Assembly (NCBI GenBank): GCA_035430005.1
Contig: DAOMFV010000001.1
Span: 25,619 to 89,618 of the forward strand
Reading direction: 5' to 3'
DNA from: Gemmatales bacterium
Lineage (GTDB): Bacteria; Planctomycetota; Planctomycetia; Gemmatales; HRBIN36
DNA length: 64,000 nt
The notes beneath the pieces are model-generated. The model was not told the DNA's origin and made no database searches. It was given only the letters and a program-made list of their open reading frames with translations. Within the stretch, counting starts at the first letter, position 1. Each line of letters starts with the position of its first letter. Below, one piece after another: positions 12,488-37,218 of the stretch. The position numbers and the translations under genes were made by a program.

Positions 12488-12497
12488 CAACACTGCG

Positions 12498-17368: not shown

Positions 17369-17381
17369 TGGATCATTGCCG

Positions 17382-20310: not shown

Positions 20311-20320
20311 GGACCAACTG

Positions 20321-20593
20321 ATGTGCCTGGGTATCCCTGGCGAAGTGACACGCTGGATCGATCGCGATCCTCTCCTGGCCCGGGCCGAGGTGCGCTTTGG
20401 TGAATTGCATCGCGTCTGTCATCTCGCTTGTGTTCCCGAAGCCGAGGTCGGCGACTATGTTATAGTCCATGCCGGCATTGCCATCAGCAAAGTCAACCCC
20501 CAGGAGGCCCGCCGATTGTTTGACGAGATTGACAAGTTCGAATTGCAACACGAACTGGCATCTGATATCCCTCCTCCGTGCAACAGCTCATGA
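20321..20593 (+). CDS. hypC: Hydrogenase assembly chaperone HypC
   Basis: Has the characteristic MCLGIPGEV N-terminus and is 90 aa long. Confidence 0.92.
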   Translation: MCLGIPGEVTRWIDRDPLLARAEVRFGELHRVCHLACVPEAEVGDYVIVHAGIAISKVNPQEARRLFDEIDKFELQHELASDIPPPCNSS

Positions 20594-21687: not shown

Positions 21688-21701
21688 CCGGAGTGCCTTT
21701 C

Positions 21702-22754: not shown

Positions 22755-22767
22755 TGAAGGAGCCAAT

Positions 22768-25173
22768 ATGTCCCGCTTCATTCGCTGGTTCTCCGATCTC
22801 TCCATCGCTGACGTTCCCCTCGTTGGTGGCAAGAACGCTTCACTCGGCGAGATGTATCGTGAACTGACGCCGAAGGGGATTGCAATTCCGAACGGTTTCG
22901 CCGTCACTGCCGATGGCTACCGGGCTGTCGTCAAGGAAGGCAAACTGGCTGATGTTCTCAAGCGATATCTGACGGGACTCAACACCAGCAACCTTGCCGA
23001 TCTTGCGGAACGTGGCCGAGCGATTCGGGAAGCCATCCTGAACACTCCGCTTCCTGGTGAGCTTCAAACCAGCATCGTTCAGGCCTATCTGCAACTGGAC
23101 AAGGAGTATGGCCCAGACCCCGATGTTGCTGTTCGCTCCAGCGCCACCGCTGAGGACTTGCCCGGAGCCAGCTTTGCCGGCCAGCAGGAATCGTTTCTCA
23201 ACATCCGTGGCGAACGGGCTTTACTCGATGCCTGCAGGCAGTGCCTGGCATCTCTCTTTACGGATCGTGCCATCTCATACCGGGTGGATAAAGGCTTCGA
23301 TCACTTCGCTGTCGCCCTTTCCATTGGCGTGCAGAAGATGGTTCGTTCGGACCTGGCCTGCTCCGGTGTGCTCTTCACCCTCGATACCGAAAGCGGCTTC
23401 CCCGATGTGGTGCTGATCAACAGTGCTTACGGCCTGGGGGAAACCATTGTCAAAGGCCGCGTTGATCCTGATGAGTTCCTGATCTTCAAACCCATGCTGG
23501 AGCGAACACAGCTTAAACCGATCCTCAAACGCCGTATCGGCTCCAAGCAGGAGAAAATGGTCTACGCCAGTCGTGGTGGAAAAAGCACTCGCATCGTCTC
23601 TGTTCCACTGGAACAGCAGCAATGTCTCAGCGTAAATGACGATGAAGTCCTCTCGCTGGCCCGCTGGGGATGCCTCATCGAGAAACACTATTCCCAGAAA
23701 GCGGGCCATCCCGTACCGATGGACATCGAATGGGCCAAGGATGGCCAGACTGGCAAATTCTTCATTCTGCAAGCCAGGCCGGAAACGGTTCACGCCATGA
23801 AACAGCAGGCTGAGATCGAGGTATTTCAACTGCAGCAGAAGGGAAAGGTCATTCTTCATGGCAAGAGCGTCGGTGCTCGCATGGGTGCCGGCGCAATACG
23901 CATCATTCGAAATGCAGATGAACTGGCACAATTTCAGCAGGGCGAAGTGCTGGTCGCGGACATGACCGATCCCGACTGGGAACCGACGATGAAGATGGCT
24001 GCTGCCATCATCACCAACCGTGGCGGACGAACATGCCATGCCGCCATCGTCAGCCGGGAACTCGGCGTACCATGTGTTGTGGGAACAGAACAGGCTACCG
24101 CCTTGCTGAAACCAGGTCAACCCGTCACGGTCTCATGTGCCGAAGGTGATGTTGGCAAAGTCTACGATGGCAAGCTGTCTTTCCAGCGAACCACCATCGA
24201 CGTCAGCAAGATGCCTCGCCCTAAGACCAAGGTCATGATGAACCTCGGCGATCCGGACAAAGCCTTTGCTCTGTCGACCCTGCCTAATGATGGAGTCGGC
24301 CTGGCACGGGAGGAGTTCATCATCTCCTCGTTCATTCGTGTGCATCCACTGGCACTACTACGTTTCGATGAACTGCCAGCCGGCGAGGAGAAGGACGAAA
24401 TCGCTCGGCTGACACAACATCACCCGAAAAAGGCTGATTACTTTGTTGAGAAACTCGCTGAAGGTGTCGGGCAATTGGCTGCCGCCTTCTACCCCAAGGA
24501 TGTCATCGTCCGCCTCTCCGATTTCAAGACCAACGAATATGCTGGCCTGCTAGGCGGCAAGCCTTTCGAGCCGAGCGAAGAAAATCCCATGATCGGCTTC
24601 CGCGGCGCCAGCCGGTACTATGATTCCCGCTACCAGGATGGCTTTCTGCTGGAATGCAAAGCGATGCGCTATGCACGGGAGGTGATAGGCCTGACGAACA
24701 TCAAGCTGATGATCCCCTTCTGTAGAACTGTTGCCGAAGGCGAGAAGGTACTTGCTGTCATGGAGAAGGCCGGGCTCAAACGTGGCCAAAACGGCTTAGA
24801 AGTCTACGTCATGTGTGAAATCCCCAGCAACGTGATCCTTGCGGAAGATTTTGCCCGTATCTTCGATGGCTTCTCCATCGGCTCCAATGATCTCACGCAA
24901 CTCACGCTGGGGCTGGATCGCGATTCCAATATCGTTGCCCATCTTTTCGATGAACGCAACGCTGCTGTCATGCGACTGATCGAGGATGTTATCAAGCGAG
25001 TCAAGGCTTGTTGCCGGAAGATCGGCATCTGTGGCCAGGCACCGAGTGACTACCCGGAGTTTGCACAGTTCCTGGTTCGTTGTGGGATTGATTCCATCTC
25101 GCTCACACCTGATACGATCCTGAAGACGACGCAGGCTATTCTGGAAATGGAAAATCAAAGCTCCGGTCGATGA
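22768..25173 (+). CDS. ppsA: Phosphoenolpyruvate synthase (pyruvate, water dikinase)
   Basis: Starts MSRFIRWFSDL...VGGKNASLGEM. Contains the phosphohistidine region GGRTCHAAIVSRELGVPCVVG and the PEP-utilising C-terminal domain (GFSIGSNDLTQL). GAAGGAG precedes the ATG at 22768. Confidence 0.93.
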   Translation: MSRFIRWFSDLSIADVPLVGGKNASLGEMYRELTPKGIAIPNGFAVTADGYRAVVKEGKLADVLKRYLTGLNTSNLADLAERGRAIREAILNTPLPGELQTSIVQAYLQLDKEYGPDPDVAVRSSATAEDLPGASFAGQQESFLNIRGERALLDACRQCLASLFTDRAISYRVDKGFDHFAVALSIGVQKMVRSDLACSGVLFTLDTESGFPDVVLINSAYGLGETIVKGRVDPDEFLIFKPMLERTQLKPILKRRIGSKQEKMVYASRGGKSTRIVSVPLEQQQCLSVNDDEVLSLARWGCLIEKHYSQKAGHPVPMDIEWAKDGQTGKFFILQARPETVHAMKQQAEIEVFQLQQKGKVILHGKSVGARMGAGAIRIIRNADELAQFQQGEVLVADMTDPDWEPTMKMAAAIITNRGGRTCHAAIVSRELGVPCVVGTEQATALLKPGQPVTVSCAEGDVGKVYDGKLSFQRTTIDVSKMPRPKTKVMMNLGDPDKAFALSTLPNDGVGLAREEFIISSFIRVHPLALLRFDELPAGEEKDEIARLTQHHPKKADYFVEKLAEGVGQLAAAFYPKDVIVRLSDFKTNEYAGLLGGKPFEPSEENPMIGFRGASRYYDSRYQDGFLLECKAMRYAREVIGLTNIKLMIPFCRTVAEGEKVLAVMEKAGLKRGQNGLEVYVMCEIPSNVILAEDFARIFDGFSIGSNDLTQLTLGLDRDSNIVAHLFDERNAAVMRLIEDVIKRVKACCRKIGICGQAPSDYPEFAQFLVRCGIDSISLTPDTILKTTQAILEMENQSSGR

Positions 25174-26584
25174 CCAGCCCCAGCTTGGCCAGTTTGGCGC
25201 GTAGCGTCGGTCGGCTGATGCCCAGAATCTGCGACGCCTGCGACTGGTTCCCTGCGGTTTTCTGCAACACTTCACGAAACAATTGTCGTTCCACAGATTC
25301 AACGACTTCTTCGTAAAGGTTTTTACTGCCCGTTTGAAGTCGTTCTCGAATCAGATCAACGATGGGTTGCTGCCCGCCAGCAGGCCGTTCATGGTGCGAG
25401 AATGATCCCGTTTTAACACCACGTAACTGATCGGGGAGGTGTTCAGGAAGCAATACGGGGCCGGTCATGCAAAGCAGCGCATGCTTGATGGCACTTTGTA
25501 ACTCTCGGATATTTCCCGGCCATGAGTATGATTCCAGCAGAATCATGGCCTCGGGAGAAAGTGATTGAACTTCCTTCTCCATTTCCTTGCCATACTGGCG
25601 TACAAAATGGGATAGAAGGATCGACATATCTCCAGTCCGCTCGCGTAAAGCGGGTAATCGAATCGTAAACACATTGAGACGATAATAGAGATCAGCGCGA
25701 AACACTCCCTTGGCAACTGCCGACTCCAGATCGCGATTCGTCGCTGCGATCACACGGACGTTGGTCTGAATGGTCTCGGCACCACCTACCCGTTCAAACC
25801 TCTGATCCTGAAGCACACGGAGAATTTTCGTCTGCATGAGAGGCGTCATGTCGCCGATCTCGTCAAGAAACAGCGTGCCGCTGTTGCACTGTTCAAACTT
25901 GCCGATGCGTTTGCGATCTGCTCCTGTGAATGCTCCTTTTTCATGTCCGAAGAGTTCACTTTCAAGTAATGTCTCAGGTATGGCGGCGCAATTGATAGCC
26001 AGGAATGGGCCATTGGAACGTTTGCTATAGTGGTAGATGGCACGCGCCACCATTTCCTTCCCTGTGCCGCTTTCACCAAGAATCAGCACCGTCACATCCT
26101 GTGGTGCCACTCGTCCGATGGCCTTGTACACTTCCTGCATGGCCGAACATTGTCCGATCAACACATCACCTTGAGTCTGTTCTGACTCCGATGAGGGCAC
26201 CAAAGCGGGCACTTGCATCAAGCGACTCGATTGCAAAGCGTGATCCACCAACTCGGTTAATTGATCGGGATCGATCGGCTTAACAACATAATCGAAGACC
26301 CCCTGGCTCATAGCTTCAATCGCTGTCTCGGCAGTGCCATGCCCCGTGGCCAGGATGAAAGGGACCTTGGCTGCCTGTTCGCGCACCCTGCGATGCACAT
26401 CGAGGCCGGTTCCATCTGGTAGACGCAAATCGCAGAGGACGACATTGGGCTGATAGCGTTGAAAAAGAGAAATACCCTCTTCTGCTGTCGTCGCCGTCAG
26501 CAGTTGAATGTCTCGATCTTCAAAGGCGTATCGATAGCACTTCAGTGTTAGTGGGTCATCATCGATGGCTAACAAGGTGGGCAT
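25136..26584 (-). CDS. Sigma-54-dependent response regulator (NtrC family: REC, AAA+, Fis-type HTH)
   Basis: Has a REC domain (LLAIDDD...DLRLPDGTG), Walker A GESGTGKE, the GAFTGA loop (EKGAFTGA), and the C-terminal HTH QASQILGISRPTLRAKL. Confidence 0.92.
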   Translation of the reverse strand: MPTLLAIDDDPLTLKCYRYAFEDRDIQLLTATTAEEGISLFQRYQPNVVLCDLRLPDGTGLDVHRRVREQAAKVPFILATGHGTAETAIEAMSQGVFDYVVKPIDPDQLTELVDHALQSSRLMQVPALVPSSESEQTQGDVLIGQCSAMQEVYKAIGRVAPQDVTVLILGESGTGKEMVARAIYHYSKRSNGPFLAINCAAIPETLLESELFGHEKGAFTGADRKRIGKFEQCNSGTLFLDEIGDMTPLMQTKILRVLQDQRFERVGGAETIQTNVRVIAATNRDLESAVAKGVFRADLYYRLNVFTIRLPALRERTGDMSILLSHFVRQYGKEMEKEVQSLSPEAMILLESYSWPGNIRELQSAIKHALLCMTGPVLLPEHLPDQLRGVKTGSFSHHERPAGGQQPIVDLIRERLQTGSKNLYEEVVESVERQLFREVLQKTAGNQSQASQILGISRPTLRAKLAKLGLVIDRSFDFPFPE

Positions 26585-26599
26585 AGAGGCTCCGATGGT

Positions 26600-28522
26600 T
26601 TATTTCACAAATTGCTGCAAAATCGACAATAGTTGTTCATCTGAATAGGGCTTCTGCAGAAATGCCTTAGCGCCTGCAGCAAAGATCGTTCGCAGCCGTT
26701 CCGCTGAGCGGAGTCCGCTGCACGCAATGATTGGCACTTGGGGATTGATTTCACGCATCTGTTGCATGACCGCGGGGCCGTCCAGCCCCGGCATCATCAT
26801 ATCGACAAGAGCAGCACGAACCTTGGGATGGTGCTCCGAAAAAAGAGCAAGAGCAGACATGCCATGCTCAGCCGTCAGAGTTTGGTAACCGCTATTCTGC
26901 AGGACAGCCTGAACGGTTTGAACAATGAGCGGCTCATCATCAACAATCAAAATGAGTTCACCATGTCCCCGGAGCGAGGAAGTTGCCTCGGTCTTGTCTT
27001 CGACAGCCATGTTGACTCCGGTCGCAGGCAGGTAGACAGTTACTCGAGTACCTTTGCCTATTTCACTGTAGACGTTAAGAAACCCTCCATGACTGCGCAC
27101 AATCCCCAGTGCGGTGGAGAGCCCAAGTCCTGTGCCTTTGCCAATGCCTTTGGTAGTGAAGAACGGGTCAAAAATCTTGTCGAGAACTTCGGGAGGGATC
27201 CCGCTACCCGTATCAGCCGCGTCCAAGAGCACATAAGGGCCTGGCTTGGCATCAGGATGAAACTGGCTGTATTCTCCACCGATCACAACGTTCTCAGCTC
27301 GGATGGTAAGCACACCACCGGCCGGCATTGCATCTCGCGCGTTCACGCAGAGGTTCATCAATACTTGCAAGAGTTGGGTTTTATCCCCTTTTACGGTCCA
27401 CAATTCCCCATCGATATTTGTTTCGATTTGAATCGTCTTGCTGAGAGTATGCTGCAACATCTTCTCGACTTCGCCTATTAAAGGCGAAATGGCGACTTGT
27501 GTTCGCTCACCTTCCATACCTCCAGCGAAAGAGAGCAACTGCTTGACCATGTCGATGCCACGCTCCACGCTGGCCTGGGCAGTGCTAAGAAGGTCTCGGG
27601 GTTTCTCATCGGTTACATACTTCCGCAACAGCTTGACGCTCATCAGAATGGGAGTCATAACATTGTTGAGATCGTGAGCGATCCCCCCTGCCAGTACACC
27701 GATACTCTCCAACCGTTGTGCACGAAGAAACTGTGACTCCAGTTTTTTCCTTTCCGTCATATCGATGTTGATCATCAGCTTGGACTTGGGCTTGTTCTGT
27801 TCGTTATGAATGAGTGTCCAATAGGAGGCTACCGTCAGCCGTCGTCCATCTTTAGTGTCGTGGTGCAACTCTCCCTGCCATTCACCTTCCTGTTCGATGA
27901 GGCGGTGGATCTCATCCATGCTGAGACCTTGAGGATGAGAGCAACACTTCAAAACGTGGCAATCTTGTCCGATCGCTTCCTGTGCCGACCAGCCGTAAAG
28001 ACGCTCGGCGCCGGCATTCCAGTAGTTAATGCGATCCTGTAAGTCAGTGACAAGAATGGCTTCCCTGACATTGTTGAGCAACTGAGCCTGTTCACGCAGC
28101 TTTCGGTCATTTTCTTTGCGAGCAGTGATGTCACGAACAAACCCGGTGAATCGTAACTCGTTTTCCGTGCCACACTCTCCAACAGCTAACTCGATGGGCA
28201 CGAGTGAGCCGTCTTTCCTTTTTCCAATCACCTCTCGACCGATGCCGATGATTCGTGGCTGACGTGTCGTGAGGTACTGCTTCAAGTAGCGGTCATGTTC
28301 TTCACGAAACGGCGAAGGCATTAGTATGGTGATATTCTGCCCAACGATTTCTTTTTCCTCATAGCCAAAGATTCGCTCCGCAGCCCGATTGAATTGCTCA
28401 ACCGTTCCATCACTCTTGATCGTAATAATACCATCGACGGCAGTATCCAGAATGGAACGTAAATACGCAGCTTCCTCATCCGCCTTCTTGACGAATTCAC
28501 CGTTGTGTGCTGATTCAGCCAT
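26600..28522 (-). CDS. Hybrid sensor histidine kinase (two PAS domains, HisKA, HATPase_c, REC)
   Basis: Two PAS-like segments are present. Contains the H-box GGIAHDLNN, the N/G boxes ([23 protein letters not shown]) and a C-terminal receiver (LIVDDE...DMMMPGLDG). It ends 15 nt before the regulator gene. Confidence 0.9.
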
Positions 28523-28737
28523 GATGCGAATAGCGCTTCCTTTTTCGTTACATCAGTCCTCGCCCGTAACATCCAGAATGTGACACCAATTATTGACGTG
28601 TTGTCCTCTGTGCGGCAAGTATTTTTCCAGATTGCGCATGGATTGTACAACCAGAGCAGGAAGCGTAACCCTTGTTCATTTGTCACGTGGAGCACAGAGT
28701 TTAGCAAAACCTGACGAAGGTAAGATCCTTGTGCCTC

Positions 28738-28753
28738 TGGCATTGAATCTGCT
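28738..28753 (+). promoter_or_regulatory. Sigma-54-type promoter (TGGCATtgaatCTGCT)
   Basis: GG-N10-GC spacing is exact. The -12 GC lies 45 nt upstream of the ATG at 28797. Confidence 0.65.
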
Positions 28754-28796
28754 CTGCAAGGTTTGGCATGTAAATGCGTTACAACACGAGTCTATC

Positions 28797-29939
28797 ATGC
28801 ATACCCTCTCACGCGATACGATCAAACAACTTGTTGAGCTATCCCACTCACCTGGCCTGATGCTGTCGTGTTATGTCAACTTGAAAGTGCAAGGAGCGTC
28901 CGAACGTCCTGGGATACTTAAAATCAAACACGCAGCCTCGCTACTGAAGCAGAGCATTCCTGAATCATTATCTGAACGGACAGAGTTCGAACAGAATATG
29001 AACAGGATCATCAAGGCCCTGGATGATCCAAGTCTTCACAACAATCATGCTATTGCAATCTTTACCGCCAAACAGAGGGATCAATTTATGATCGTTCCGT
29101 TGGGGATGCCCATCTTAACAGAACTCGTCAACAGTGATAGACCCTACCTGGTTCCGCTGCTGCAATGCCATTTTGCACAACAACGCGAGTATCTTGGGCT
29201 GACATTTGACAACGATCAGGCACGAATATTCCTGGCAAATGCCGGAACTGTCAAGCTGCTGAAACACTGGCATTCTGATGTTCCCACCAAACAGCACTCC
29301 TCCGGTGATCGCGGAGCCTGGTCCCAATCGAATATAGCTAGCCGTCGAGAAGAGATGCTTGATCGCCACCAAAAAGAGATGATCGATGGCTTCTCCAAGG
29401 CGCTGCAGGAACATCCACAAGCCGGTATTCTTCTGCTTGGGCACGAAGTGGAAGTGACTCAGTTGAAGAATAAGCTGCCTCCTCACTTGAGCGGTCGGCT
29501 AGTTCACACGGGGGTGTGTAACAACATGGATTCCGAGAAGTCGCAATCTAAGACCATCCTTGAGATCGTTCGGAAGCAGAATGTGCTTCATGCGCAGTCT
29601 CTGCTCAAAGAACTGAAACGACGCCAATCACTGAAGACGAGTTGTGCCGTCGGGCCAGCTGATGTACTGGCTGCGCTTGACACAGGAAGGTTAACACAAA
29701 AGGGCAGCTTACTTCTGGGGCCCGATCCAAAGGAGGACGCTTTCCTCTGCACGTCGTGCCGTCACCTGGCCTTGGACGAGGTCAAACAATGCCCGCGTTG
29801 TGGCAGTGGGTGCAAGTCCTGCAATTTGTGGGAAGAAATTCTCTTGAGAGCATTTCGCCATCAATGGAATGTAGTACCCGTCGATGGCTCAGAGGGCCTG
29901 ACGAAATCAGGCTTTATTGCAATGCTCCTTGAAGTCTAG
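28797..29939 (+). CDS. Bacterial eRF1/Pelota-like (baeRF-type) protein with C-terminal zinc ribbon, lacking GGQ
   Basis: The N-terminus LSRDTIKQLVELSHSPGLMLSCYVNL, the central ...GDRGAWSQSNIASRREE..., and the C-terminal GPADVLAALDTGRL...SLLL follow the three-domain eRF1 layout. A zinc ribbon CTSC...CPRCGSGCKSC follows. No GGQ tripeptide occurs anywhere. The start at 28797 was chosen from the conserved N-terminus and the promoter position. Confidence 0.6.
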   Translation: MHTLSRDTIKQLVELSHSPGLMLSCYVNLKVQGASERPGILKIKHAASLLKQSIPESLSERTEFEQNMNRIIKALDDPSLHNNHAIAIFTAKQRDQFMIVPLGMPILTELVNSDRPYLVPLLQCHFAQQREYLGLTFDNDQARIFLANAGTVKLLKHWHSDVPTKQHSSGDRGAWSQSNIASRREEMLDRHQKEMIDGFSKALQEHPQAGILLLGHEVEVTQLKNKLPPHLSGRLVHTGVCNNMDSEKSQSKTILEIVRKQNVLHAQSLLKELKRRQSLKTSCAVGPADVLAALDTGRLTQKGSLLLGPDPKEDAFLCTSCRHLALDEVKQCPRCGSGCKSCNLWEEILLRAFRHQWNVVPVDGSEGLTKSGFIAMLLEV

Positions 29940-30092
29940 CAGCCATTGACGGCACATTAGCAGTTACCAGCTTGGAAAGATTCTTTCCGAATCGCCTACG
30001 ATCCGAACCGATCACGCAGTCTGGCTCTTGCTTTTACATGTGATTTAATGCTGTATCGATGGTCATTTGATTCATTTCGACCATGCGGTAAT

Positions 30093-30108
30093 TGGCATGA
30101 CAACTGCT
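30093..30108 (+). promoter_or_regulatory. Sigma-54-type promoter (TGGCATgacaaCTGCT)
   Basis: GG-N10-GC spacing is exact. The -12 GC lies 42 nt upstream of the ATG at 30149. Both elements are identical to those of the 28738 site. Confidence 0.65.
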
Positions 30109-30148
30109 TTTCCTGTGTTGGATTCAAACCAGATCAAAGGACTCGTCC

Positions 30149-30478
30149 ATGACCAAAGCTACTCGTGAAAAGTATCGTCAACAGTTGCTCACACTGGCTA
30201 AAGAAGTCGGCAGAGAATCAGTACACCTCAAGGATGAGGCGGTTCATCCACTGGCCGAGTTGTCCGGACAATTTTCCGAAAAGCACAATGAGCAAGCTGA
30301 GTTGGGAGTAACCATTTCGCTTCTGAACAACGAAGAATCGCTCTCGTCGGAGATCAAAAGTGCCCTCCAACGAATTGACGACGGCACATTCGGAATATGC
30401 ATGAAGTGTCAAAAGTCCATCACCCAAGAGCGTCTTAATGCCATTCCCTATACACCTTACTGCATCCAATGTGCATAG
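30149..30478 (+). CDS. DksA/TraR-family C4 zinc-finger protein
   Basis: The C-terminus is LQRIDDGTFGICMKCQKSITQERLNAIPYTPYCIQCA (CxxC-x17-CxxC), preceded by a predicted helical region. AAAGGA lies upstream of the ATG. Confidence 0.8.
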   Translation: MTKATREKYRQQLLTLAKEVGRESVHLKDEAVHPLAELSGQFSEKHNEQAELGVTISLLNNEESLSSEIKSALQRIDDGTFGICMKCQKSITQERLNAIPYTPYCIQCA

Positions 30479-30511
30479 CTGAACCCGTAATTACCCAGGA
30501 CAGGTGCAGAC

Positions 30512-30736
30512 ATGTTAAAGCAATCGACTCCTCTTCTGATTCAGCTTTCATACCTCCAACAGAACATGAGGGAGCAATTGCGATTCCAGATTCAGAATCT
30601 CCGACTGGAGTTGCGTAACAACGAGATCGTCCTGCTCGGCCGTGCCAGGTCGTACTATCACAAGCAGCTTGCCCAGGAGCTGGTGATCAAGAGAAACTAT
30701 GCCGAGAAATTGGCAAATGAGATTCTGGTAACGTAA
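30512..30736 (+). CDS. Small BON-like domain protein
   Basis: LRLELRNNEIVLLGRARSYYHKQLAQELV...LANEILV fits the BON pattern (x-V-x-V-x-G-x-V-x-L-x-G-x-V...N-x-I-x-V). The gene is 33 nt downstream of the DksA-like gene. Confidence 0.45.
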   Translation: MLKQSTPLLIQLSYLQQNMREQLRFQIQNLRLELRNNEIVLLGRARSYYHKQLAQELVIKRNYAEKLANEILVT

Positions 30737-30744
30737 TCAACTGA

Positions 30745-31059
30745 TCAATAACGAGTTACATCTTGTCTAATCCCCGGCTGAATCGCAACAGGTTTACTGA
30801 TCTTGCTGGGAGGCTGATCATGGTTGCTATGATTATTTCGCTTGTCTAGGAGCATTCGGGCATTGACTTCATCCCAGGCACTCACCATTCCTCGGATTTC
30901 GAGGATACCCGTGAAACCGGCCTGATGCTCTCCTTCAAGCAGGCACTGAATCCCTTCAGATTCCGGCATGTTCTTGAGGATTTCTGCCTCGGCAAATTGG
31001 TTCGTGGAAAAGGCGATGACCGGTTCGTTCTTCACTGCGAGTCTCCTTAGCGGATTCAT
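30745..31059 (-). CDS. DUF2007-like small signal-transduction-fold protein
   Basis: VIAFSTNQFAEAEILKNMPESEGIQCLLEGEH...LEIRGMVSAWDEVNARMLL resembles the DUF2007 pattern. It is the last gene of the minus-strand stress operon. Confidence 0.4.
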   Translation of the reverse strand: MNPLRRLAVKNEPVIAFSTNQFAEAEILKNMPESEGIQCLLEGEHQAGFTGILEIRGMVSAWDEVNARMLLDKRNNHSNHDQPPSKISKPVAIQPGIRQDVTRY

Positions 31060-31610
31060 GTTTTGGATAAGGCCTTAAGCAGTTCTTCAGTCTTCGCTCT
31101 TCCGCCATGGCCCTTGCTTACGAGCGAGAAGGTGACAACGCCCTTGGTATTCACGCCAAAGGTTGCAGGGAAGACCGTTTCATTAGGAGCGGCCCAGCGT
31201 AAGCCATACTTAGCCGCAAAGCCGTAATCCGGGTCGGTGACAAGCCGAAAGTTGTTGGGCAGCATTTTGTCAGCAAGAAATTCACGTGCATGCTCGTCCA
31301 ATTTGCCCGCGGCACCAGGATAGATCAGGAGCACAGTTGCTCCGGCATCCATAAAACTGCTCGATTTACTAATCAAGTCAGCGACCTGTTTTTGGCATAT
31401 TTCACTTTGTGCTCCAGGGTAGCCTCGCAGAACAATGATGGCGACAGGACCTTTTTCATACAGAAGTGACAACTTAACCGAAGAGCCATCCAGCGTCTTG
31501 AGCTCAAAATCCTGAGCAGTTTCCCCGGTCAAGGGCGATTTGTCCCATTCAGGAAGAGTAGCTTGCAGGAAAAGCAGCCCGAGAACAAGCGATATGTGTG
31601 ACAAAGTCAT
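31056..31610 (-). CDS. Secreted redoxin/peroxiredoxin-like (AhpC/TSA family) protein
   Basis: The N-terminus is signal-like (MTLSHISLVLGLLFLQA). The thioredoxin-fold block is FELKTLDG...GPVAIIVLRGYPGAQSEICQKQV. The alternative start at 31637 would overlap the upstream gene by 11 nt and has no RBS. Confidence 0.6.
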   Translation of the reverse strand: MTLSHISLVLGLLFLQATLPEWDKSPLTGETAQDFELKTLDGSSVKLSLLYEKGPVAIIVLRGYPGAQSEICQKQVADLISKSSSFMDAGATVLLIYPGAAGKLDEHAREFLADKMLPNNFRLVTDPDYGFAAKYGLRWAAPNETVFPATFGVNTKGVVTFSLVSKGHGGRAKTEELLKALSKT

Positions 31611-31626
31611 GTACAAGATGCACCTC

Positions 31627-32739
31627 TCATGATCCATTTTTCTTGCGCATTGCCATGGCAGTGCGCACTCGTTCCGTTGCTAGGTCAACCGCAGCCTGGC
31701 GGGGTGAGATTCGTTCATCCCGTGAACGTGTAAAGACAGATCGGGTATTATCTCGGATTCGCTGCGCAATCATGTCGAATGCCAAAGACTGGGTGCCACC
31801 ATGAAATTCGACGGAAGCACAAATGACACCGCCTGCGTTAGCGATAAAATCGGGTACGACAAATACGCCTCGTTCCCGTAGAGTCGTTTCAGCAGCATGG
31901 GTAGCCGGGATATTGGCTCCTTGAAGAATCAGTTTCGCCTTGATCGACGCAACATTCCTTTCATTTATGCAGTCAGGCTTGGCTGCGGGGATCAAAATGT
32001 CGCAAGCTACGCCAAAGAGGTCCTTTGCCTCCATCTTCTTGCCGCCTGCGTAACTGGTAACCGTTCCAGTACGGTCCTTGGTCTGTATCAGTTTCTCGAT
32101 ATCGATGCCCTGGGCATCGTACACGGCACCCTTGCTATCGCTTGCTGCTACCAACCTCACCCCTAGCTCAGCAAGAAACTGCGCAGCGGGCCGTCCAACG
32201 TTGCCGAAACCTTCGATGCCGAGTGTTGCCCCTTTGAGCTTGAGCCCGGCAAATTCAGAAGCGACTTCCGCGCAACGTGCCAGTCCATAACCAGTCGCTC
32301 CAATCTTATCCAGAGGTATGCCACCCAGTACACTGGGAAGACCGACTGATCGGCCAATCTCATCCCAGATCAACCCCATGCACGTTTCATCGGTGCCCAT
32401 ATCAGGACCGGGAATGTAACTCGTTAACTCACGAATGCTACGAGCAAAGCTACGGACCAAGCTGGCTTTGTTCTTGCCCTTCGGATCGGCGATTAAGCCT
32501 GCCTTCCCTCCTCCGTGGGGCAACCCTGCGGCTGCATTTTTAAGTGTCATGGCCCGTGCCAGCCGATAGACTTCATCCACACTGACATCCACCGCCATCC
32601 GTACGCCCCCGATGGCAGGACCGCATGCGGTGTTGTCGATCACTACAAATCCCCGCATTTCCGTGTGAGGATCAAAAAGATGCACAATCTTCTCAGGACC
32701 AAGCACATCATAATATCTATCTAAGGCGGTCGTTGACAT
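31627..32739 (-). CDS. Glu/Leu/Phe/Val-family amino-acid dehydrogenase
   Basis: Contains the catalytic-Lys block AAAGLPHGGGKAGLIADP and the Rossmann motif GIEGFGNVGRPAA. The ATG at 32739 is preceded by GGAGA. The longer ORF start at 32910 overlaps the upstream gene. Confidence 0.85.
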   Translation of the reverse strand: MSTTALDRYYDVLGPEKIVHLFDPHTEMRGFVVIDNTACGPAIGGVRMAVDVSVDEVYRLARAMTLKNAAAGLPHGGGKAGLIADPKGKNKASLVRSFARSIRELTSYIPGPDMGTDETCMGLIWDEIGRSVGLPSVLGGIPLDKIGATGYGLARCAEVASEFAGLKLKGATLGIEGFGNVGRPAAQFLAELGVRLVAASDSKGAVYDAQGIDIEKLIQTKDRTGTVTSYAGGKKMEAKDLFGVACDILIPAAKPDCINERNVASIKAKLILQGANIPATHAAETTLRERGVFVVPDFIANAGGVICASVEFHGGTQSLAFDMIAQRIRDNTRSVFTRSRDERISPRQAAVDLATERVRTAMAMRKKNGS

Positions 32740-32780
32740 ATTGTCTCCAGAACACTTCACCGTGGCTCCCGGTCGAATGA

Positions 32781-33635
32781 TCAATGATAAAGGAACAGAG
32801 GCACTGGACTTTCCTTCAGCAGAGTGCGAGTAACCGATCCAAACAAGAAATCCCTGAGCTTGCCGTGACCGAAAACTCCCATCACGAGGATGGAAGGATC
32901 GCAAAGCCATGTCTGCTTGATAATGGCTTGAGCCGGATGATCCTTGCAGACCACGGCATGCACCATGAAGGGGCGATCATGCCAGGTGAGGAAATCGGCG
33001 GCTTGTTGAGCATGTTTTTCAGCCTCGCTATGGCTGGTTGCGATACTGACGATATGCACCTTCTTATCCTTGTCGATCCCTGAAGCTTCGAATGCTTGCA
33101 GCGCTCGCGCCGCTTCTGGGCTGCCATCGTAAGCCACCATAACACACTTGCTCTCTCGAATGCTGTTGGGAACAGTCACAACTGGCCTGGAGCAAAATCG
33201 TGCTACTTCTTTAAGCGTGGCATCCAGTTCTTCCGAGGAACCTCGATGGAAAAAGGTACGTCGCCCGAGCATCACCAGGTCGAAGCGCTGGGCCTGTGTC
33301 GTCAGTCGCTCAGCTGGTACGCCCAGGTCTTCCAGTAGCTTGCATGGCACCTGTCGCTCTGCACATTGAAGTGTGAACTGCTGAAGATATCGTTCCACAC
33401 GCCGCTGATCTTCGTGAAACAAACGTTGGTCCAGGCCGGACGCCTCAGCCAGTGGATCAAAGGGGGGCAGTCCTGGAACCATTTGGCTGGGCAAACGAGT
33501 TACCACTGCGGGCTCATCGACAATACCGATGCCCACCAGCATCGCATCAAGTTGTTTGGCCCAAAGCAAGCCAAGTTCCACGGCAGCATGGCTGAATGGA
33601 GAACCGTCCAGTCCTATGAGTATGCTCTTGACCAT
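32781..33635 (-). CDS. Tandem universal stress protein (two UspA domains)
   Basis: There are two USP units. The first is SILIGLDGS...LVMLGRR. The second is CVMVAYDGSPEA...ILVMGVFGHGKLRDFLFGSVTRTLLKESPVPLFLYH, carrying the ATP-binding G-x2-G-x9-G(S/T) motif. The start is ambiguous (33635 or 33710). Confidence 0.85.
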   Translation of the reverse strand: MVKSILIGLDGSPFSHAAVELGLLWAKQLDAMLVGIGIVDEPAVVTRLPSQMVPGLPPFDPLAEASGLDQRLFHEDQRRVERYLQQFTLQCAERQVPCKLLEDLGVPAERLTTQAQRFDLVMLGRRTFFHRGSSEELDATLKEVARFCSRPVVTVPNSIRESKCVMVAYDGSPEAARALQAFEASGIDKDKKVHIVSIATSHSEAEKHAQQAADFLTWHDRPFMVHAVVCKDHPAQAIIKQTWLCDPSILVMGVFGHGKLRDFLFGSVTRTLLKESPVPLFLYH

Positions 33636-33731
33636 TTCAGCCTCATCAAAGATCCGAAGAAAAGAATCCTCGGCAGCCTGACAGGTGCGATGAGCCATTT
33701 CGCCTGCCAAGGATTCAAAGTCGCCACCGTC

Positions 33732-34205
33732 TCACTTGGTTGACTGGATGGCAATGGGCTTGCCCCGAGCCGTCTCCACCTTGGGGATAGCCACCGTTAG
33801 CAAGCCGTTTTGGAACTTGGCCTCTGCCTTGTCCATGATGCATCCCTCAGGCAACGTGATCGAACGAAAGAGCGAAGAACGGCGTTCTTCCGAGCATTCC
33901 TTATCCTTCACTTCTGATTTGTGCTCTGCCTTCAGCACCAACTCGTTGCCTACCTGCTTCAAATCGATCTCTTTGGCATCGAACCCGGGTGCCTCGAATC
34001 GGGCAATCACCGAGTTGTCCTTCTCTTCCAAGTCCACGCCCCAGGAGGGCTTTTCGTTGTCGAAGAACGACACATCGCCGAAGAACCGCTGGAAGACTCG
34101 ATCCATCTCCTGACGAAACTGATTGAAGACAGGGAACCCGCTCCACTTCGCCAGTGAACCATTGCCGTTCAACTGTTGGGTCTTGCTGGGAATCATGCTA
34201 CTCAT
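33732..34205 (-). CDS. Hsp20/alpha-crystallin small heat-shock protein
   Basis: The alpha-crystallin core is VIARFEAPGFDAKEIDLKQVGNELVLKAEHK...FRSITLPEG...AKFQNGLLTVAIPK. Confidence 0.92.
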   Translation of the reverse strand: MSSMIPSKTQQLNGNGSLAKWSGFPVFNQFRQEMDRVFQRFFGDVSFFDNEKPSWGVDLEEKDNSVIARFEAPGFDAKEIDLKQVGNELVLKAEHKSEVKDKECSEERRSSLFRSITLPEGCIMDKAEAKFQNGLLTVAIPKVETARGKPIAIQSTK

Positions 34206-34266
34206 GGTCTTAGCTCCTTGTGATCAGGGTTTAGGTAAAGTGAAACTGTTGATATGGCGTGCGACA

Positions 34267-34719
34267 TCATCCCTTTACGTTTGACTCTGGGGACAATGGC
34301 ACAATAAGGACAGGGCAAGGAGCCCGCCGCAATACGTGGTCGGCTACGCTGCCAAGAAATAATCGCTTGAATCCAGTACGGCCATAAGTGCCCATCACGA
34401 TTAGATCAGCATGACAGGACTGTGCCTTGCTCACAATCGTTTCAACGGGTGTGCCCTCGATGAACATATCCTCGATCTTAAGACCAGACTTGCTTTCCAG
34501 TATTTGCCGAAGTTTCCGCCGTACATCCTCTTCTGAGACCATCTCATGAGGAATAACAGGAAGATCGCCTGTGCTGAGAGCTTCTATCATGTAGGCATGC
34601 AAGACCACGATCGTGGCGTTAGCTGACTCAGCGATTTGACAAGCCAGTTTCAACGCTTGCTCTGCATTAGGCGAGAAATCGGTCGGGTGCAAAATGATCT
34701 TTGGCGGCCAGGTTGTCAT
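34267..34719 (-). CDS. Universal stress protein (single UspA domain)
   Basis: Contains ILHPTDFS...LIVMGTYGRTGFKRLFLGSVADHVLRRAPCPVLIV. Confidence 0.9.
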   Translation of the reverse strand: MTTWPPKIILHPTDFSPNAEQALKLACQIAESANATIVVLHAYMIEALSTGDLPVIPHEMVSEEDVRRKLRQILESKSGLKIEDMFIEGTPVETIVSKAQSCHADLIVMGTYGRTGFKRLFLGSVADHVLRRAPCPVLIVPLSPESNVKG

Positions 34720-34754
34720 GGTTTAACTCGCAGCAGGTTAACGTGATGACTCAT

Positions 34755-34770
34755 TGCAGACCGAGTGCCA
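34755..34770 (-). promoter_or_regulatory. Sigma-54-type promoter (minus strand TGGCACtcggtCTGCA)
   Basis: GG-N10-GC spacing is exact. The -12 GC lies 37 nt upstream of the usp start codon at 34719. Confidence 0.65.
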
Positions 34771-34952
34771 AAGCTTAAAAATACGTCGGGAGTAGCCACC
34801 GTGCTGAATGGCAATTCAGATGTGTGAGAAGTCGAAATGCCTGCCGTCGAGAAAACTATTTGCTGGAAGTTAATTGCTTTCCATCATGGATAGAAACTTA
34901 CCGGCACAAGTCGGCTTCTCCGATAAAAACACTAGTAGATGGTATTCATGCA

Positions 34953-34968
34953 CGGCACGGAAACTGCC
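34953..34968 (+). promoter_or_regulatory. Sigma-54-type promoter (cGGCACggaaaCTGCC)
   Basis: GGCACG-N4-CTGC with exact spacing. The -12 GC lies 43 nt upstream of the ATG at 35010. Confidence 0.55.
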
Positions 34969-35009
34969 TTCTGGTAAGTAGGGAGGAACACCGAACTGGA
35001 GCACACATC

Positions 35010-35525
35010 ATGCCTGCCACATTACTTGGACAACCACTAGTTCTCTCTTCCGGCACTGTCGATATGGCCATGTCAGACAACCCTGTCTCCGTCTCTGATA
35101 TTGAGACAGCACAAGGCGTGGCTCAAGTGCTCATCGAGCATCGCATCAGCGCTGTCCCGATCATTAATGAAGCTGGGCATCCCGTAGGAGTTATCAGCCG
35201 TACAGACCTGGTCAATCACCTGGTGCAACTTCAGAGTCACGTTCGCACCCTGGAAGAGGACTGGTTTGAATGTGGGAATATCGTTGATGAAGAAATCATA
35301 AGGAGTCAACCCTGTCGGGCGGGTTCCTGGAGCAAGATCACCGCCAAAGCAATCATGAATACAAGATTGTTCACAGTTACACCTGAAGATTCTCTTGAGA
35401 TAGCTGTCGAACTCATATTGAAACACCACGTTCATCGGCTCTTCGTCGTTGATCATGACGGTGTTCTTGTTGGCATTATCAGTACCTTCGATATCCTAAA
35501 CCGACTTGAACGACGTTTCGAGTAG
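35010..35525 (+). CDS. CBS-domain pair protein
   Basis: There are two CBS units (VAQVLIEHRISAVPIINEAGHPVGVISRTDL and AVELILKHHVHRLFVVDHDGVLVGIISTFDIL). The ATG at 35010 has GGAG 9 nt upstream. The ORF part upstream of it has no domain content. Confidence 0.8.
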   Translation: MPATLLGQPLVLSSGTVDMAMSDNPVSVSDIETAQGVAQVLIEHRISAVPIINEAGHPVGVISRTDLVNHLVQLQSHVRTLEEDWFECGNIVDEEIIRSQPCRAGSWSKITAKAIMNTRLFTVTPEDSLEIAVELILKHHVHRLFVVDHDGVLVGIISTFDILNRLERRFE

Positions 35526-35712
35526 GGCTTTAAGCCATGAGCAGCATTGGATCGGCCAAGAAGTCCTGCGTTCTGGGGTAACCATGACACCAACGACTCC
35601 TTTGACTCACCCTGTGCTCATTGCAGTGGCCTGGTATCGCTCATGTGGGTATTAATGCTGGATTCTACATGATGTCCAAGTTGGGCATGTCCCTATCAAT
35701 GCCTAGAGCCTG

Positions 35713-36069
35713 TTATTGACTTCGGAAGGCAGCTTGTTTGATAATGATGGTGAGGAAGGCAAGCCAGTGCCACCCTTCGAGAACTTTGGCCAGTCGTTCG
35801 TAGTCGCGGGCCAAGTGTCTAAAACGGGCGAGCCAGCCAAAGGTACGTTCCACCACCCAGCGTCGTGGTAACAGCACAAAACCCTTCTTGGCTTCCGTGT
35901 GTTTAACGACTTCCAGACGGATGCCATGCTGACTGGCTTGTTGAGTTGCATCTTCACCGGTGTATCCTTGATCCACATAGGCCAGCGTCACTGTACCACC
36001 AGTGGCCTCTTGCACCTGGGACGCCAATTCAGCCACTTGGGCTCGCTCTTGTTCGTTAGCTGCTGTCAC
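35713..36069 (-). pseudogene. IS5-family DDE transposase, C-terminal fragment only
   Basis: Contains YVDQGYTG (second Asp region) and LLPRRWVVERTFGWLARFRHLARDYE (Glu region). The N-terminal half with the first catalytic Asp is absent and no terminal inverted repeats were identified. Confidence 0.75.
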
Positions 36070-36159: not shown

Positions 36160-37218
36160 TCATTCATCTTCTACGACAGTTTTCTTAGGCACATAGTCAA
36201 TTGTTGTTCGATCCATGCAAAACCAATCGTTGATGGCCTCCTCTTCGTAGTTAAACACGATTGTTTTCCTCTTGGCATTTTGAGCAAATAAATGGAACTT
36301 GAGATTAAACCCATATCTGAGATTTGGCCGCACTCCACTACGTCCATCAATGCTTTGAAATTGAAGCCCTTGTGTTTCGAGTCTCTTATTCTTTACCGAA
36401 AACTCGATCTCGGCTTCTGGATGCAAAGGGCGACTCAAGTAAGCATGCGCTTTTCCTTGTAGCATTGCAAGTTGAGCATGAACAACAGCATCTAGCCTAA
36501 ATCCTGACTCTGAATGGGAATTCACGAGATTGACAGGGGCATTGGATTCCAAAACAACAAGTATCTCGTGTGCCGTTGCCGTCCCCTTGTTCTGAAGAAC
36601 TAAGATCATCGAAAACTCTACCGAGGCATCGCTTTTCACTCGCATGACTGTGTTCTGTATCAAGTCAAGATCAACCTTGGTAAACGGATAGAACATTTGT
36701 TTCAGCATCGAATGCGGAATTACCTTGCATGACTCGCCAGCACGCATGACATAGGTTTTGGCCGATCCAGGAAATTCTCTGCGGTGTGGCCGATGTGGAC
36801 TGAGAGGAACATAGCAAACCAACACACCCTTATCTGGGCCAGCGGTTTCAATCGGTAAGTATCGGACACCTTGAACGGGTGGATCGTTGGCAACGTGAAT
36901 CTGCTTAGTCAGAATGGCTTGCAGTTCGGACAGTGATTGAACTGGTACAACTTCGCCAGGGGTGTCTCTGGAAGTTGTACGAATACCGACAATGAGCAGT
37001 CCGCCTTCGGTGTTGGCAAAAGCTGATAAGTATTCTGACCATGCTTCCTGAATCTTGTCTCTGTCGAACTCCGTTGCGTTTTTCATCCAGCATTGTTTGT
37101 AATCAATCCATTCGTGTTCCGATGGCTTGTGTTCCAAGACGTAGGCAATTTGCTCCGCACCTGTATTGAGTTGGTTAAGTTGGCTGAAAAACGATTCAAC
37201 ACGGGATGGAAGGGCCAT
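36160..37218 (-). CDS. Schlafen/AlbA_2-like putative DNA/RNA-binding domain protein with uncharacterised C-terminal half
   Basis: The N-terminal EHEWIDYKQ...LSAFANTEGGLLIVGI...GVLVCYVPLSPHRP...TYVMRAGESCKVIPHSMLKQMF follows the AlbA_2 (PF04326-type) pattern. The gene is visibly AT-rich compared with its neighbours. Confidence 0.55.
   Translation of the reverse strand: MALPSRVESFFSQLNQLNTGAEQIAYVLEHKPSEHEWIDYKQCWMKNATEFDRDKIQEAWSEYLSAFANTEGGLLIVGIRTTSRDTPGEVVPVQSLSELQAILTKQIHVANDPPVQGVRYLPIETAGPDKGVLVCYVPLSPHRPHRREFPGSAKTYVMRAGESCKVIPHSMLKQMFYPFTKVDLDLIQNTVMRVKSDASVEFSMILVLQNKGTATAHEILVVLESNAPVNLVNSHSESGFRLDAVVHAQLAMLQGKAHAYLSRPLHPEAEIEFSVKNKRLETQGLQFQSIDGRSGVRPNLRYGFNLKFHLFAQNAKRKTIVFNYEEEAINDWFCMDRTTIDYVPKKTVVEDE

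Follow-up and report, generated by a model that had tools for sequence, protein, structure and literature searches.

We analysed a stretch of 64,000 nucleotides from a Gemmatales bacterium (here called the window, meaning the stretch at its full length), in which a 380-aa protein with the fold of the release factors aRF1 and eRF1 (the aeRF1 fold) is encoded upstream of a small DksA-like gene and a still smaller, weakly BON-like gene. The 380-aa protein belongs to the Balon family, and we consider it probable that it acts as a hibernation factor within a low-oxygen, sigma-54-driven dormancy regulon analogous to the DosR regulon of mycobacteria. The genes at the centre of the locus are as follows.

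28797-29939, forward strand: Balon-family aeRF1-fold gene, 380 aa, from the list of open reading frames (ORFs) and its translation
30149-30478, forward strand: DksA/TraR-family C4 zinc-finger gene, 109 aa
30512-30736, forward strand: weakly BON-like gene, 74 aa, starting 33 nt past the stop codon of the DksA-like gene

An NCBI record annotated as 'hypothetical protein PLN21_00210 [Gemmatales bacterium]' is 100% identical to the 380-aa protein. A 448-aa ORF opening at the TTG at 28593 was considered as the coding start and dropped, because the homologues begin at positions equivalent to MHTLSRD and because the sigma-54 element described below falls within the extension. The 74-aa gene is probably co-transcribed with the DksA-like gene. 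No terminator between the Balon and DksA-like genes was found in a simple scan of 28400-31200, and the search for sigma-70 promoters and intrinsic terminators over that interval returned nothing beyond shuffle expectation. Rfam, at gathering threshold, gave zero RNA families in 25000-36000, so the intergenic regions are not explained by a riboswitch or small RNA.

The family assignment draws on profile searches and on a structural model. Pfam baeRF_family10 matches the 380-aa protein at 1.1e-11 (45.6 bits, above the cut-off of 27.1 bits), and weaker Pfam matches fall on other baeRF families and on eRF1_2. Its best NCBIfam matches are three 'ribosome hibernation factor' (RHF) models, those of the MSMEG_1130, Rv2629 and AOC03_06830 families, with the MSMEG_1130-family model reaching 2.8e-16; all three models derive from the work of Helena-Bueno et al. 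2024 (PMC10901736). TIGR03676 (aRF1_eRF1) scored 25.1 bits and missed its cut-off of 234.7. A phmmer search of the PDB with the 380-aa sequence alone gave zero matches even at E<=10; profiles were therefore needed, and two were searched against the PDB, one made from 14 sequences and one from 115 family representatives. The smaller profile placed the Balon protein Msmeg1130 at the top (2.8e-11). The larger one matched Msmeg1130 at 3.8e-46, aRF1 at 5.1e-39, Rv2629 at 3e-33 and the Balon of P. urativorans at 8e-15, with alignments near full length for the first three and covering positions 9-353 of 370 for the last. An exhaustive search for the family yielded 735 cluster representatives at E<=1e-3.

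The AlphaFold2 (AF2) model of the protein (pLDDT 84.6, pTM 0.82) has ribosome-bound Msmeg1130 as its top Foldseek match (8v9l_z; E 6.7e-20, template-modelling (TM) scores 0.72/0.73), followed by further matches to aRF1, P. urativorans Balon (TM 0.66), Rv2629 (TM 0.62), eRF1 and Pelota. The N domain spans residues ~1-125, the M domain ~130-245 with a loop at 162-184, and the C domain ~280-380 with a Cys4 ribbon at 318-335. An earlier reading of this DNA made from the letters alone (the sequence-only reading) had described an ORF with a three-part eRF1-like layout ending in such a ribbon, taken it for a GGQ-less A-site-type factor, and proposed profile and AlphaFold-Foldseek comparisons as the way to look for an eRF1/Pelota fold. 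That description stands: profiles and fold alike match Balon, aRF1, eRF1 and Pelota, the ribbon is invariant in 14 homologues, and at the level of the predicted structure the three-domain aeRF1 fold is confirmed.

Balon proteins are bacterial aeRF1 homologues that fill the ribosomal A site without dependence on mRNA, together with EF-Tu-GDP, under stress, as established by cryo-EM, genetics and biochemistry (Helena-Bueno et al. 2024, PMC10901736). They occur in ~20% of bacteria, usually in stress operons and typically alongside genes for Hsp20 and hypoxia factors. Hypoxia induces both Rv2629 and Msmeg1130, and in mycobacteria one of the Balon copies adjoins the hypoxia-response factor Hrp1 (PMC10901736). 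Two further statements of the sequence-only reading have to be given up in the light of that work: that bacterial eRF1-like proteins remain experimentally uncharacterised, which is outdated (PMC10901736), and that the locus represents an undescribed system, since Balon factors are known (PMC10901736) and NCBIfam already holds the three RHF models. The 380-aa protein is a member of an already catalogued family, in a clade closer to aRF1; what is novel at this locus is its regulatory wiring and its retention of aRF1-like features, the kind of system itself being known.

The regulatory wiring begins on the opposite strand, where two genes stand divergently upstream of the Balon gene.

26600-28522, reverse strand: hybrid histidine kinase, 640 aa, with a FixL-type haem PAS domain, a second PAS domain, HisKA/HATPase and a C-terminal receiver
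25136-26584, reverse strand: NtrC-family response regulator and sigma-54 activator, 482 aa, with REC, AAA+ Sigma54_activat and HTH_8 domains

Residues 18-144 of the kinase match the haem domains of FixL (1d06 from R. meliloti at 4.7e-37, 1dp6 from B. japonicum at 2.7e-35). Its H76, in 'REEHDRYL', aligns with the proximal His of FixL, and its R96 with the haem-pocket (distal) Arg of 'IGIGR'; both are conserved. The FixL equivalog model NF041777 was missed (233 vs 850 bits), and the partner here is an NtrC-type activator. The hybrid kinase is the presumed O2 sensor. The activator carries strong Pfam matches (Sigma54_activat 6e-74, Response_reg 6.6e-25, HTH_8 2.3e-12), matches NCBIfam ntrC at 1.5e-139, below the equivalog cut-off, and shows the GAFTGA loop directly in its translation.

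Three sigma-54 -24/-12 promoter-like elements, each with an upstream activating sequence (UAS)-like palindrome that is a candidate site for this activator, would connect the two-component pair to the genes around it.

28614-28628, no strand assigned: UAS-like imperfect palindrome GGCAAGTATTTTTCC, 109 nt upstream of the Balon sigma-54 element
28738-28753, forward strand: sigma-54 -24/-12 promoter-like element TGGCATTGAATCTGCT, ending 43 nt before the Balon ATG
29974-29988, no strand assigned: UAS-like perfect palindrome GGAAAGATTCTTTCC, 104 nt upstream of the DksA sigma-54 element
30093-30108, forward strand: sigma-54 -24/-12 promoter-like element TGGCATGACAACTGCT, ending 40 nt before the ATG of the DksA-like gene
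34755-34770, reverse strand: third sigma-54 promoter-like element TGGCACTCGGTCTGCA, ending 35 nt before the ATG of a universal stress protein (USP) gene
34888-34902, no strand assigned: UAS-like palindrome GGTAAGTTTCTATCC (as read on the minus strand), 117 nt upstream of the USP-operon promoter

The identical TGGCAT-N5-CTGCT elements that the sequence-only reading placed ahead of both the Balon and the DksA-like units are there: the pattern occurs exactly twice in 64 kb, against 0.10 expected from shuffles (a count of 2 was reached in 1 of 100). An extended motif, GGYAAGTNTYTWTCCA, likewise has two occurrences in the window against 0.03 expected. The relaxed pattern TGGCAY-N5-YTGCW has four matches against 0.46 expected by chance, three of them intergenic and 35-43 nt before start codons, and all three intergenic promoters have a GGAAAG-N3-CTTTCC-like palindrome 104-117 nt upstream. 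The fourth match, TGGCACTAGCACTGCT at 19718-19733 on the forward strand, lies inside hypF and is probably due to chance; a UAS-like 15-mer is absent upstream of it, as it is upstream of sigma-54-like matches in unrelated loci. A simpler palindrome, TTTCCA-N3-TGGAAA, was also tried and is not enriched (5 vs 2.7 expected); the GGAAAG-N3-CTTTCC register fits the three promoters better. We regard the promoter elements as more than chance because they are conserved in orthologous intergenic regions. The activator presumably binds the UAS-like palindromes, and because the Balon unit and the DksA-like unit share this palindrome and adjoin a gene for an NtrC-type activator, they very probably belong to one stress regulon.

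The third promoter, which the sequence-only reading had left out together with the FixL-type sensor, would drive a six-gene operon whose members were named by Pfam, with a further gene divergent from it.

30745-34719, reverse strand: six-gene stress operon, in the order USP, Hsp20, tandem USP, dehydrogenase, peroxiredoxin, DUF2007
34267-34719, reverse strand: USP, first gene of the operon
33732-34205, reverse strand: Hsp20
32781-33710, reverse strand: tandem USP
31627-32910, reverse strand: Glu/Leu-type dehydrogenase (GDH)
31056-31637, reverse strand: peroxiredoxin
30745-31059, reverse strand: DUF2007 protein
34824-35525, forward strand: CBS-pair protein, divergent from the USP operon (Pfam CBS 5e-27; 170 aa in the orthologous locus L007)

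With USP, Hsp20, CBS and peroxiredoxin genes among its neighbours, the Balon gene sits in a stress cluster, as described for Balon genes elsewhere (PMC10901736); the CBS-pair protein is a possible member of the island. Several ORFs are longer than the orthologous gene calls: GDH 427 vs 366-369 aa, the tandem USP 309 vs 283-284 aa, peroxiredoxin 193 vs 158 aa and CBS 233 vs 170 aa. The true starts of these four genes are probably downstream of the mechanical ORF calls, and the apparent gene overlaps are therefore artefacts.

On the other side of the regulators lies a cluster for a cytoplasmic, group-3-type [NiFe] hydrogenase (12462-22754, forward strand), comprising Fer4_22, an NAD-binding/FeS subunit, an Oxidored_q6 small subunit and a NiFeSe large subunit along with the maturation genes hycI, hypB-like, hypF, hypD and hypE. 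It is directly upstream of a gene for pyruvate phosphate dikinase or a related PEP-utilising enzyme (PPDK; 22267-25173, forward strand; a 968-aa ORF, 801 aa in the L015 orthologue) and of the activator and kinase genes; the 3' end of the PPDK gene overlaps that of the convergent activator gene by ~38 nt. Hydrogenase genes beside the island fit a low-oxygen, fermentative island. Further upstream, at 9304-11937 on the forward strand, is a gene for a P-type cation-transporting ATPase of 877 aa.

The second unit of the proposed regulon encodes a protein that passes the Pfam cut-off for zf-dskA_traR (3.2e-7; 30.7 bits, cut-off 24.9) and falls below the NCBIfam cut-offs, its matches including yteA at 1e-16 (61.5 vs 134.4 bits) and DksA TIGR02420 at 1.4e-13 (51.2 vs 115.5 bits). 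In the PDB the 109-aa protein matches 2kq9 (4.9e-12) and E. coli DksA (1tjl, 8e-6). Its AF2 model (pLDDT 71) pairs helices 3-32 and 49-78 in a hairpin followed by a zinc finger (C84/C87/C105/C108) and ends at C108-A109 with no C-terminal helix; Foldseek matches it to DksA2 at TM 0.74-0.78 and to RNA polymerase-bound DksA at TM 0.70. The protein, as modelled, has the DksA fold. The sequence-only reading had called it a TraR/DksA C4 zinc-finger protein without an obvious DxxDxA tip, and Pfam, the model and the alignment with E. coli DksA bear this out: D74 and A76 of E. coli DksA align to S43 and K45, and D71 falls in an A-E-L stretch before a 5-residue insertion. The tip loop (33-48) is longer and modelled with low confidence, with G40, S43 and E48 conserved. 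Binding to RNA polymerase is plausible for a protein predicted to fold in this way.

Of the 74-aa protein rather less can be said. The ORF is present as the sequence-only reading had it, and the 'BON-like' label it was given is tentative, because Pfam BON (PF04972) scores 21.0 bits against a gathering score of 27 (4.2e-4). The protein is cytoplasmic, and its detected homologues are confined to Gemmatales, none with a precomputed Pfam match. In the NCBI annotation the gene is 52 aa long (P0179), and the 74-aa ORF is conserved in relatives.

Comparison with other loci, designated L001 to L016, indicates which of these associations have been kept. The overall layout recurs in five related Gemmatales lineages, with Balon identity down to 52%, and among the loci that have a close Balon homologue the gene content is as follows.

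L007 and L008 (Balon 76% identical): kinase in both, activator in L007, the L008 contig ending in the kinase; DksA-like gene in both (partial in L008); BON-like gene and stress operon also in L007
L010 (Balon 56% identical): kinase and activator; Balon alone, with no DksA-like or BON-like gene
L009 (Balon 52% identical): kinase and activator; USP-Balon, with a DksA-like gene beyond a DUF3788 gene on the opposite strand
L013 and L014 (Balon 52% identical): kinase, at which the contig ends; USP-Balon, then a fatty-acid desaturase gene

In all six of these loci the FixL-type kinase gene is divergent from Balon or from USP-Balon, with USP directly upstream of Balon in L009, L013 and L014, and the sigma-54 element ahead of Balon or USP-Balon is kept, with the UAS-like 15-mer 107-130 nt upstream of it. 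Kinase orthologues (fragments) are 72-85% identical to the window protein in L007-L010 and L013-L016, and activator orthologues 79-94% identical in L007, L009, L010 and L015, where the contig reaches. The link between kinase, activator, sigma-54 promoter and Balon is thus conserved within this Gemmatales group. The six GTDB loci with relatives of 31-35% identity (L001-L006), like L011 and L012, showed neither a linkage of kinase and activator nor a strict sigma-54 motif upstream; the informative loci were those of close Gemmatales relatives. Balon relatives of 29-35% identity are not linked to this kinase and have Hsp20, CBS, BON or response-regulator genes among their neighbours.

The other two promoters are conserved as well. 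The DksA-like gene, present in L007, L008 and L009 and absent from L010, L013 and L014, has its own sigma-54 promoter and UAS; the counterpart in L007 and L008 is GGAAAATTTCTTTCC, at a gap of 104 nt, and in L009 the gaps are 75 and 108 nt. The USP-operon promoter is conserved in L007 (at 8940) and L015 (at 13638), and the gene order of the stress operon is shared with L007 and, without peroxiredoxin, with L015 and L016. These last two (Gemmatales GCA_046350055.1) have the island with hyp genes, PPDK, activator, kinase, DUF2007, GDH, USP, Hsp20 and USP, in which the hyp-PPDK-activator-kinase order is common to the window, and they have neither Balon nor the DksA-like gene. The BON-like gene there lies directly behind a UAS and sigma-54 promoter, as seen in L015 at 9670-10010, where the UAS GGCAAGCATTTTTCC and the promoter TGGCATAATAACTGCT are 85 nt apart. 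L015 and L016 are in effect a natural 'deletion variant', useful for reconstructing the gain or loss of the Balon and DksA-like genes. In L010, at ~3715-3850 on the minus strand, a sigma-54-like element TGGCACAATAGCTGCT follows a perfect palindrome TTTCCATCATGGAAA ahead of a peptidase_M50-CBS gene, which suggests a regulon extending to other genes and a half-site of TTTCCA/TGGAAA.

The same loci bear on whether the Balon, DksA-like and BON-like proteins work together at all, or are independent members of a stress island that gene gain and loss have brought side by side without functional partnership. The latter would account for Balon occurring with kinase and activator but no DksA-like or BON-like gene in L010, for the desaturase gene that follows USP-Balon in L013 and L014, for the island with only a BON-like gene in L015 and L016, and for the opposite-strand DUF3788 gene that splits Balon from the DksA-like gene in L009; among the distant relatives, moreover, a DksA-like gene lies near Balon in L001 alone (Balon 35% identical). 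Against it, four separate lineages (the window, L007/L008, L009 and L001) have a DksA-like gene close to Balon, and the gene, where present, always has its own sigma-54 promoter with the same type of UAS and is therefore co-regulated with Balon even if the two proteins are not physically partnered. We consider mere co-location without a functional partnership unlikely. The co-regulated pair proposed in the sequence-only reading accordingly survives in part: the shared promoter and UAS type speak for it, and L010 and L015/L016, which break up the trio, speak against an obligate module. The three genes are very probably co-regulated regulon members and not an obligate three-gene module.

The loop that would face the peptidyl-transferase centre (PTC) bears on whether the 380-aa protein parks ribosomes or acts on them chemically. 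The absence of NIKS and GGQ and an insertion in the C domain are among the hallmarks of Balon (Supplementary Fig. 5 of PMC10901736). Both motifs are absent from the 380-aa sequence, and NIKS from the family consensus also; translation and alignments agree with the sequence-only reading that there is no GGQ and that the region reads GDRGAWSQS. The PTC loop, V162-P-T-K-Q-H-S-S-G-D-R-G-A-W-S-Q177, thus has GAW (G173-A174-W175) and a 4-residue insertion, and the closest relatives carry GGWSQ. The family consensus, VPG(K/R)H..GGW(S/A)Q.R(Y/F).R(H/R)R, is collinear with the VPGK..KGGQS.QRF.R.R of aRF1, and in the alignment of profile hidden Markov models the family Trp falls on the Gln of the aRF1 GGQ, with Q177 two residues later; the catalytic Gln has therefore been replaced by Trp. 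In the 115-row family alignment G170 is kept in 103 rows, W175 in 95 and Q177 in 82, making the loop the most conserved motif of the family apart from the Cys4 ribbon. The alignments therefore identify the loop as a conserved, recognisable GGQ-to-GGW derivative of the aRF1 loop and not random sequence, a relation that the sequence-only reading had not drawn. Rv2629 carries 'AGW' at the same site in the profile alignment.

The ribbon itself (C318, C321, C332, C335) is invariant in 14/14 close homologues; the four columns hold Cys in 108-112 of the 115 rows, and a CxxC...CxxC ribbon is found in the C domain of 113 of 125 full-length sequences from two protein searches. It occupies the insertion site of the Balons, where Msmeg1130 and Rv2629 have no Cys and the present protein has an intact Cys4 ribbon. 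The usual baeRF insert was described as a two-strand, possibly degenerate zinc ribbon by Burroughs and Aravind 2019 (PMC6514570).

These features invite the alternative that the protein works actively as a release or rescue factor induced by stress, one that would use Q177 for peptidyl-tRNA hydrolysis or cleave tRNA in the manner of Vms1 on stalled ribosomes. Family 10 was singled out among the baeRF families as a potential peptidyl hydrolase for its conserved Gln (Burroughs and Aravind 2019, PMC6514570), and the GGWSQ of the relatives fits the GGxSQ pattern of acVLRF-1 (PMC6514570). The degree of conservation of the VPxKxH..GGW-SQ.R..RHR loop, second only to the ribbon, points the same way, as does the nearness of the profile match to aRF1 (5.1e-39) to that with Balon (3.8e-46); an intact zinc ribbon would, in addition, support an aRF1-like contact with a translational GTPase. 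However, it is Trp and not Gln that stands on the catalytic position, and the aRF1 residue aligned with Q177 varies, being Gln in one sequence and Ala in a second. The loop in the window protein is degraded further, to GAW with its 4-residue insertion, while Rv2629, a verified Balon that inhibits translation (PMC10901736), has 'AGW' there. A stop-codon motif of the NIKS type is lacking, and the gene lies in a stress or dormancy context like those of known Balons. Because Q177 aligns two residues past the catalytic position, catalysis on peptidyl-tRNA appears unlikely, and we hold the release-factor alternative to be improbable as a whole.

A related thought, to which we attach similarly little weight, is that the zinc-ribbon, GGW-SQ clade (baeRF family 10) is mechanistically distinct from the characterised Balons. 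It might comprise hypoxia-induced A-site factors that still perform Q177-dependent release or Vms1-like cleavage, or that engage a GTPase through the zinc ribbon in the manner of aRF1, and the protein might act with a tip-divergent DksA paralogue, so that one FixL-NtrC-sigma-54 oxygen switch would shut down translation and transcription.

We hold it highly improbable that the locus serves in phage defence or in conflict between bacteria by shutting down translation on attack. The baeRF-1 pathways have been proposed as a response to ribosome-targeting conflict effectors (Burroughs and Aravind, PMC6514570) and a Schlafen/AlbA_2 protein is encoded ~6 kb away, but PADLOC matches none of the Balon, DksA-like, BON-like and DUF2007 proteins, the genes around them are of the housekeeping kind, for stress and metabolism rather than for defence (USP, Hsp20, GDH, peroxiredoxin, hydrogenase), and the region is syntenic in Gemmatales with no mobile-element genes among its annotated neighbours. 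The Schlafen/AlbA_2 protein (36160-37218, reverse strand, 352 aa), in a stretch of lower GC content (~48%), has a very weak match to a PADLOC pAgo model (E 1.4e-4) and appears unrelated to the Balon locus.

We therefore return to a Balon-family hibernation factor in a low-oxygen regulon as the reading that we favour. When oxygen is low, the deoxy form of the FixL-type hybrid kinase would signal to the adjacent NtrC-type activator, which would bind the GGAAAG-N3-CTTTCC-like sites ~105-117 nt upstream of the three sigma-54 promoters. Three units would be switched on: the Balon gene, the DksA-like and BON-like genes, and the operon of USP, Hsp20, USP, GDH, peroxiredoxin and DUF2007. By homology to the ribosome complexes of Msmeg1130, Rv2629 and P. 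urativorans Balon, the 380-aa protein would fill the A site of the 70S ribosome and read no mRNA there, placing its N domain at the decoding centre and its GAW-SQ loop next to the PTC, where it would not hydrolyse peptidyl-tRNA; the C domain, with its zinc ribbon, would point towards the GTPase-associated region and EF-Tu. Ribosomes would in this way be parked and protected, while the coiled coil of the DksA-like protein would probably enter the secondary channel of RNA polymerase and reprogramme transcription in the same response. The analysis establishes the family and fold, the promoter and UAS motifs with their conservation, and the synteny; from these we infer ribosome binding, oxygen control, occupancy of the UAS-like sites by the activator and binding of RNA polymerase by the DksA-like protein.

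A number of observations weigh against this scheme and should temper it. The protein is only 12-18% identical to the solved Balons in the Foldseek alignments, and it misses the equivalog cut-offs of the NCBIfam RHF models (59.5 vs 480 bits for MSMEG_1130, 31.6 vs 320 for Rv2629 and 15.1 vs 330 for AOC03_06830); it thus represents a different subfamily from those three anchored families. By alignment, its clade has kept a Cys4 zinc ribbon at the site of the beta-loop with which Balon contacts EF-Tu(GDP), and its aRF1-like loop is strongly conserved and includes a conserved Gln (Q177, 82/115). The 'HP motif' of the decoding-centre loop, for which the paper (PMC10901736) gives no residue numbers, was not located in the 380-aa protein; the variable candidate loop at 29-39 is modelled with low confidence (pLDDT ~59), and the conserved P116-Y-L-V-P-L, which may or may not correspond to the motif, aligns with PFIHPL of Msmeg1130 and PYVVPL of Rv2629. 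Oxygen sensing is deduced from homology, and with a kinase of the hybrid type, signalling may require a phosphorelay partner. For the second unit, binding to RNA polymerase is uncertain because the DksA-like protein has neither the DxxDxA tip nor the C-terminal helix, and across the loci compared neither this gene nor the BON-like gene is consistently linked to Balon.

Our findings would extend the Balon hibernation system to Planctomycetota with a circuit that can be tested, in which a haem-PAS sensor and an NtrC-type activator would act through a candidate operator on three sigma-54 promoters. The convergence with DosR suggests that bacteria have repeatedly met oxygen starvation by grouping Balon with USP, Hsp20, CBS and hydrogenase genes. 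The clade, with its intact zinc ribbon and a GGQ that has become GGW, also offers a useful evolutionary intermediate between aRF1 and Balon. A structure of the ribosome-bound protein would reveal by what route a release factor turned into a hibernation factor, and whether it is the zinc ribbon or the beta-loop that dictates the use of EF-Tu.

Set beside the characterised Balons (P. urativorans Balon, Msmeg1130 and Rv2629), the 380-aa protein shares the aeRF1 fold, the lack of NIKS and GGQ and the site of the C-domain insertion; like Rv2629 it has a Gly-Trp in the PTC loop, and like the known Balons it belongs to a stress or hypoxia cluster with Hsp20, USP and CBS genes. It differs in having an intact Cys4 ribbon in place of a beta-loop (Balon) or a larger non-zinc insertion (the mycobacterial proteins), in its highly conserved aRF1-like loop (GGW-SQ.R..RHR), in its control by sigma-54 and an NtrC-type activator rather than by DosR or sigma-70, and in that a RaiA/HPF gene was not seen beside the 380-aa gene. 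With aRF1 and eRF1 it has in common the fold and the domain order, a loop VPxK(Q/H)H..GG(W)SQ.R that is collinear with the aRF1 loop VPGKHKMGGQSQRR, a C-terminal GGxxALLR motif as in aRF1, and a zinc ribbon at the place in the C domain where some aRF1s have one; unlike them, it lacks NIKS and has Trp in place of the catalytic glutamine of GGQ. The 109-aa protein resembles DksA, DksA2 and the short DksA-like proteins (A. tumefaciens 2KQ9, the Bacillus YteA family) in its coiled-coil hairpin and C4 zinc finger, and the match to 2KQ9 reaches residue 109 of 112 in that structure, both proteins ending '...CA'; unlike DksA, it has no DxxDxA tip and no C-terminal helix.

The regulatory parallels are of the same mixed kind. 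In the DosR regulon, a haem-based O2 sensor kinase controls a set with the Balon Rv2629, USPs, Hsp20/alpha-crystallin and a CBS-domain protein, and in M. smegmatis also a group-3 [NiFe] hydrogenase. The sensors of DosS and DosT are of the GAF-haem type and DosR is a NarL/LuxR-type regulator, whereas the window has a PAS-haem sensor of the FixL type and a sigma-54 AAA+ activator. Because the phylum differs, we regard the resemblance as convergent, an analogy and not membership. FixL-FixJ and the present pair have the haem PAS domain in common, but the hybrid kinase here carries an additional PAS domain and a receiver domain, and its partner is of the NtrC type and not FixJ.

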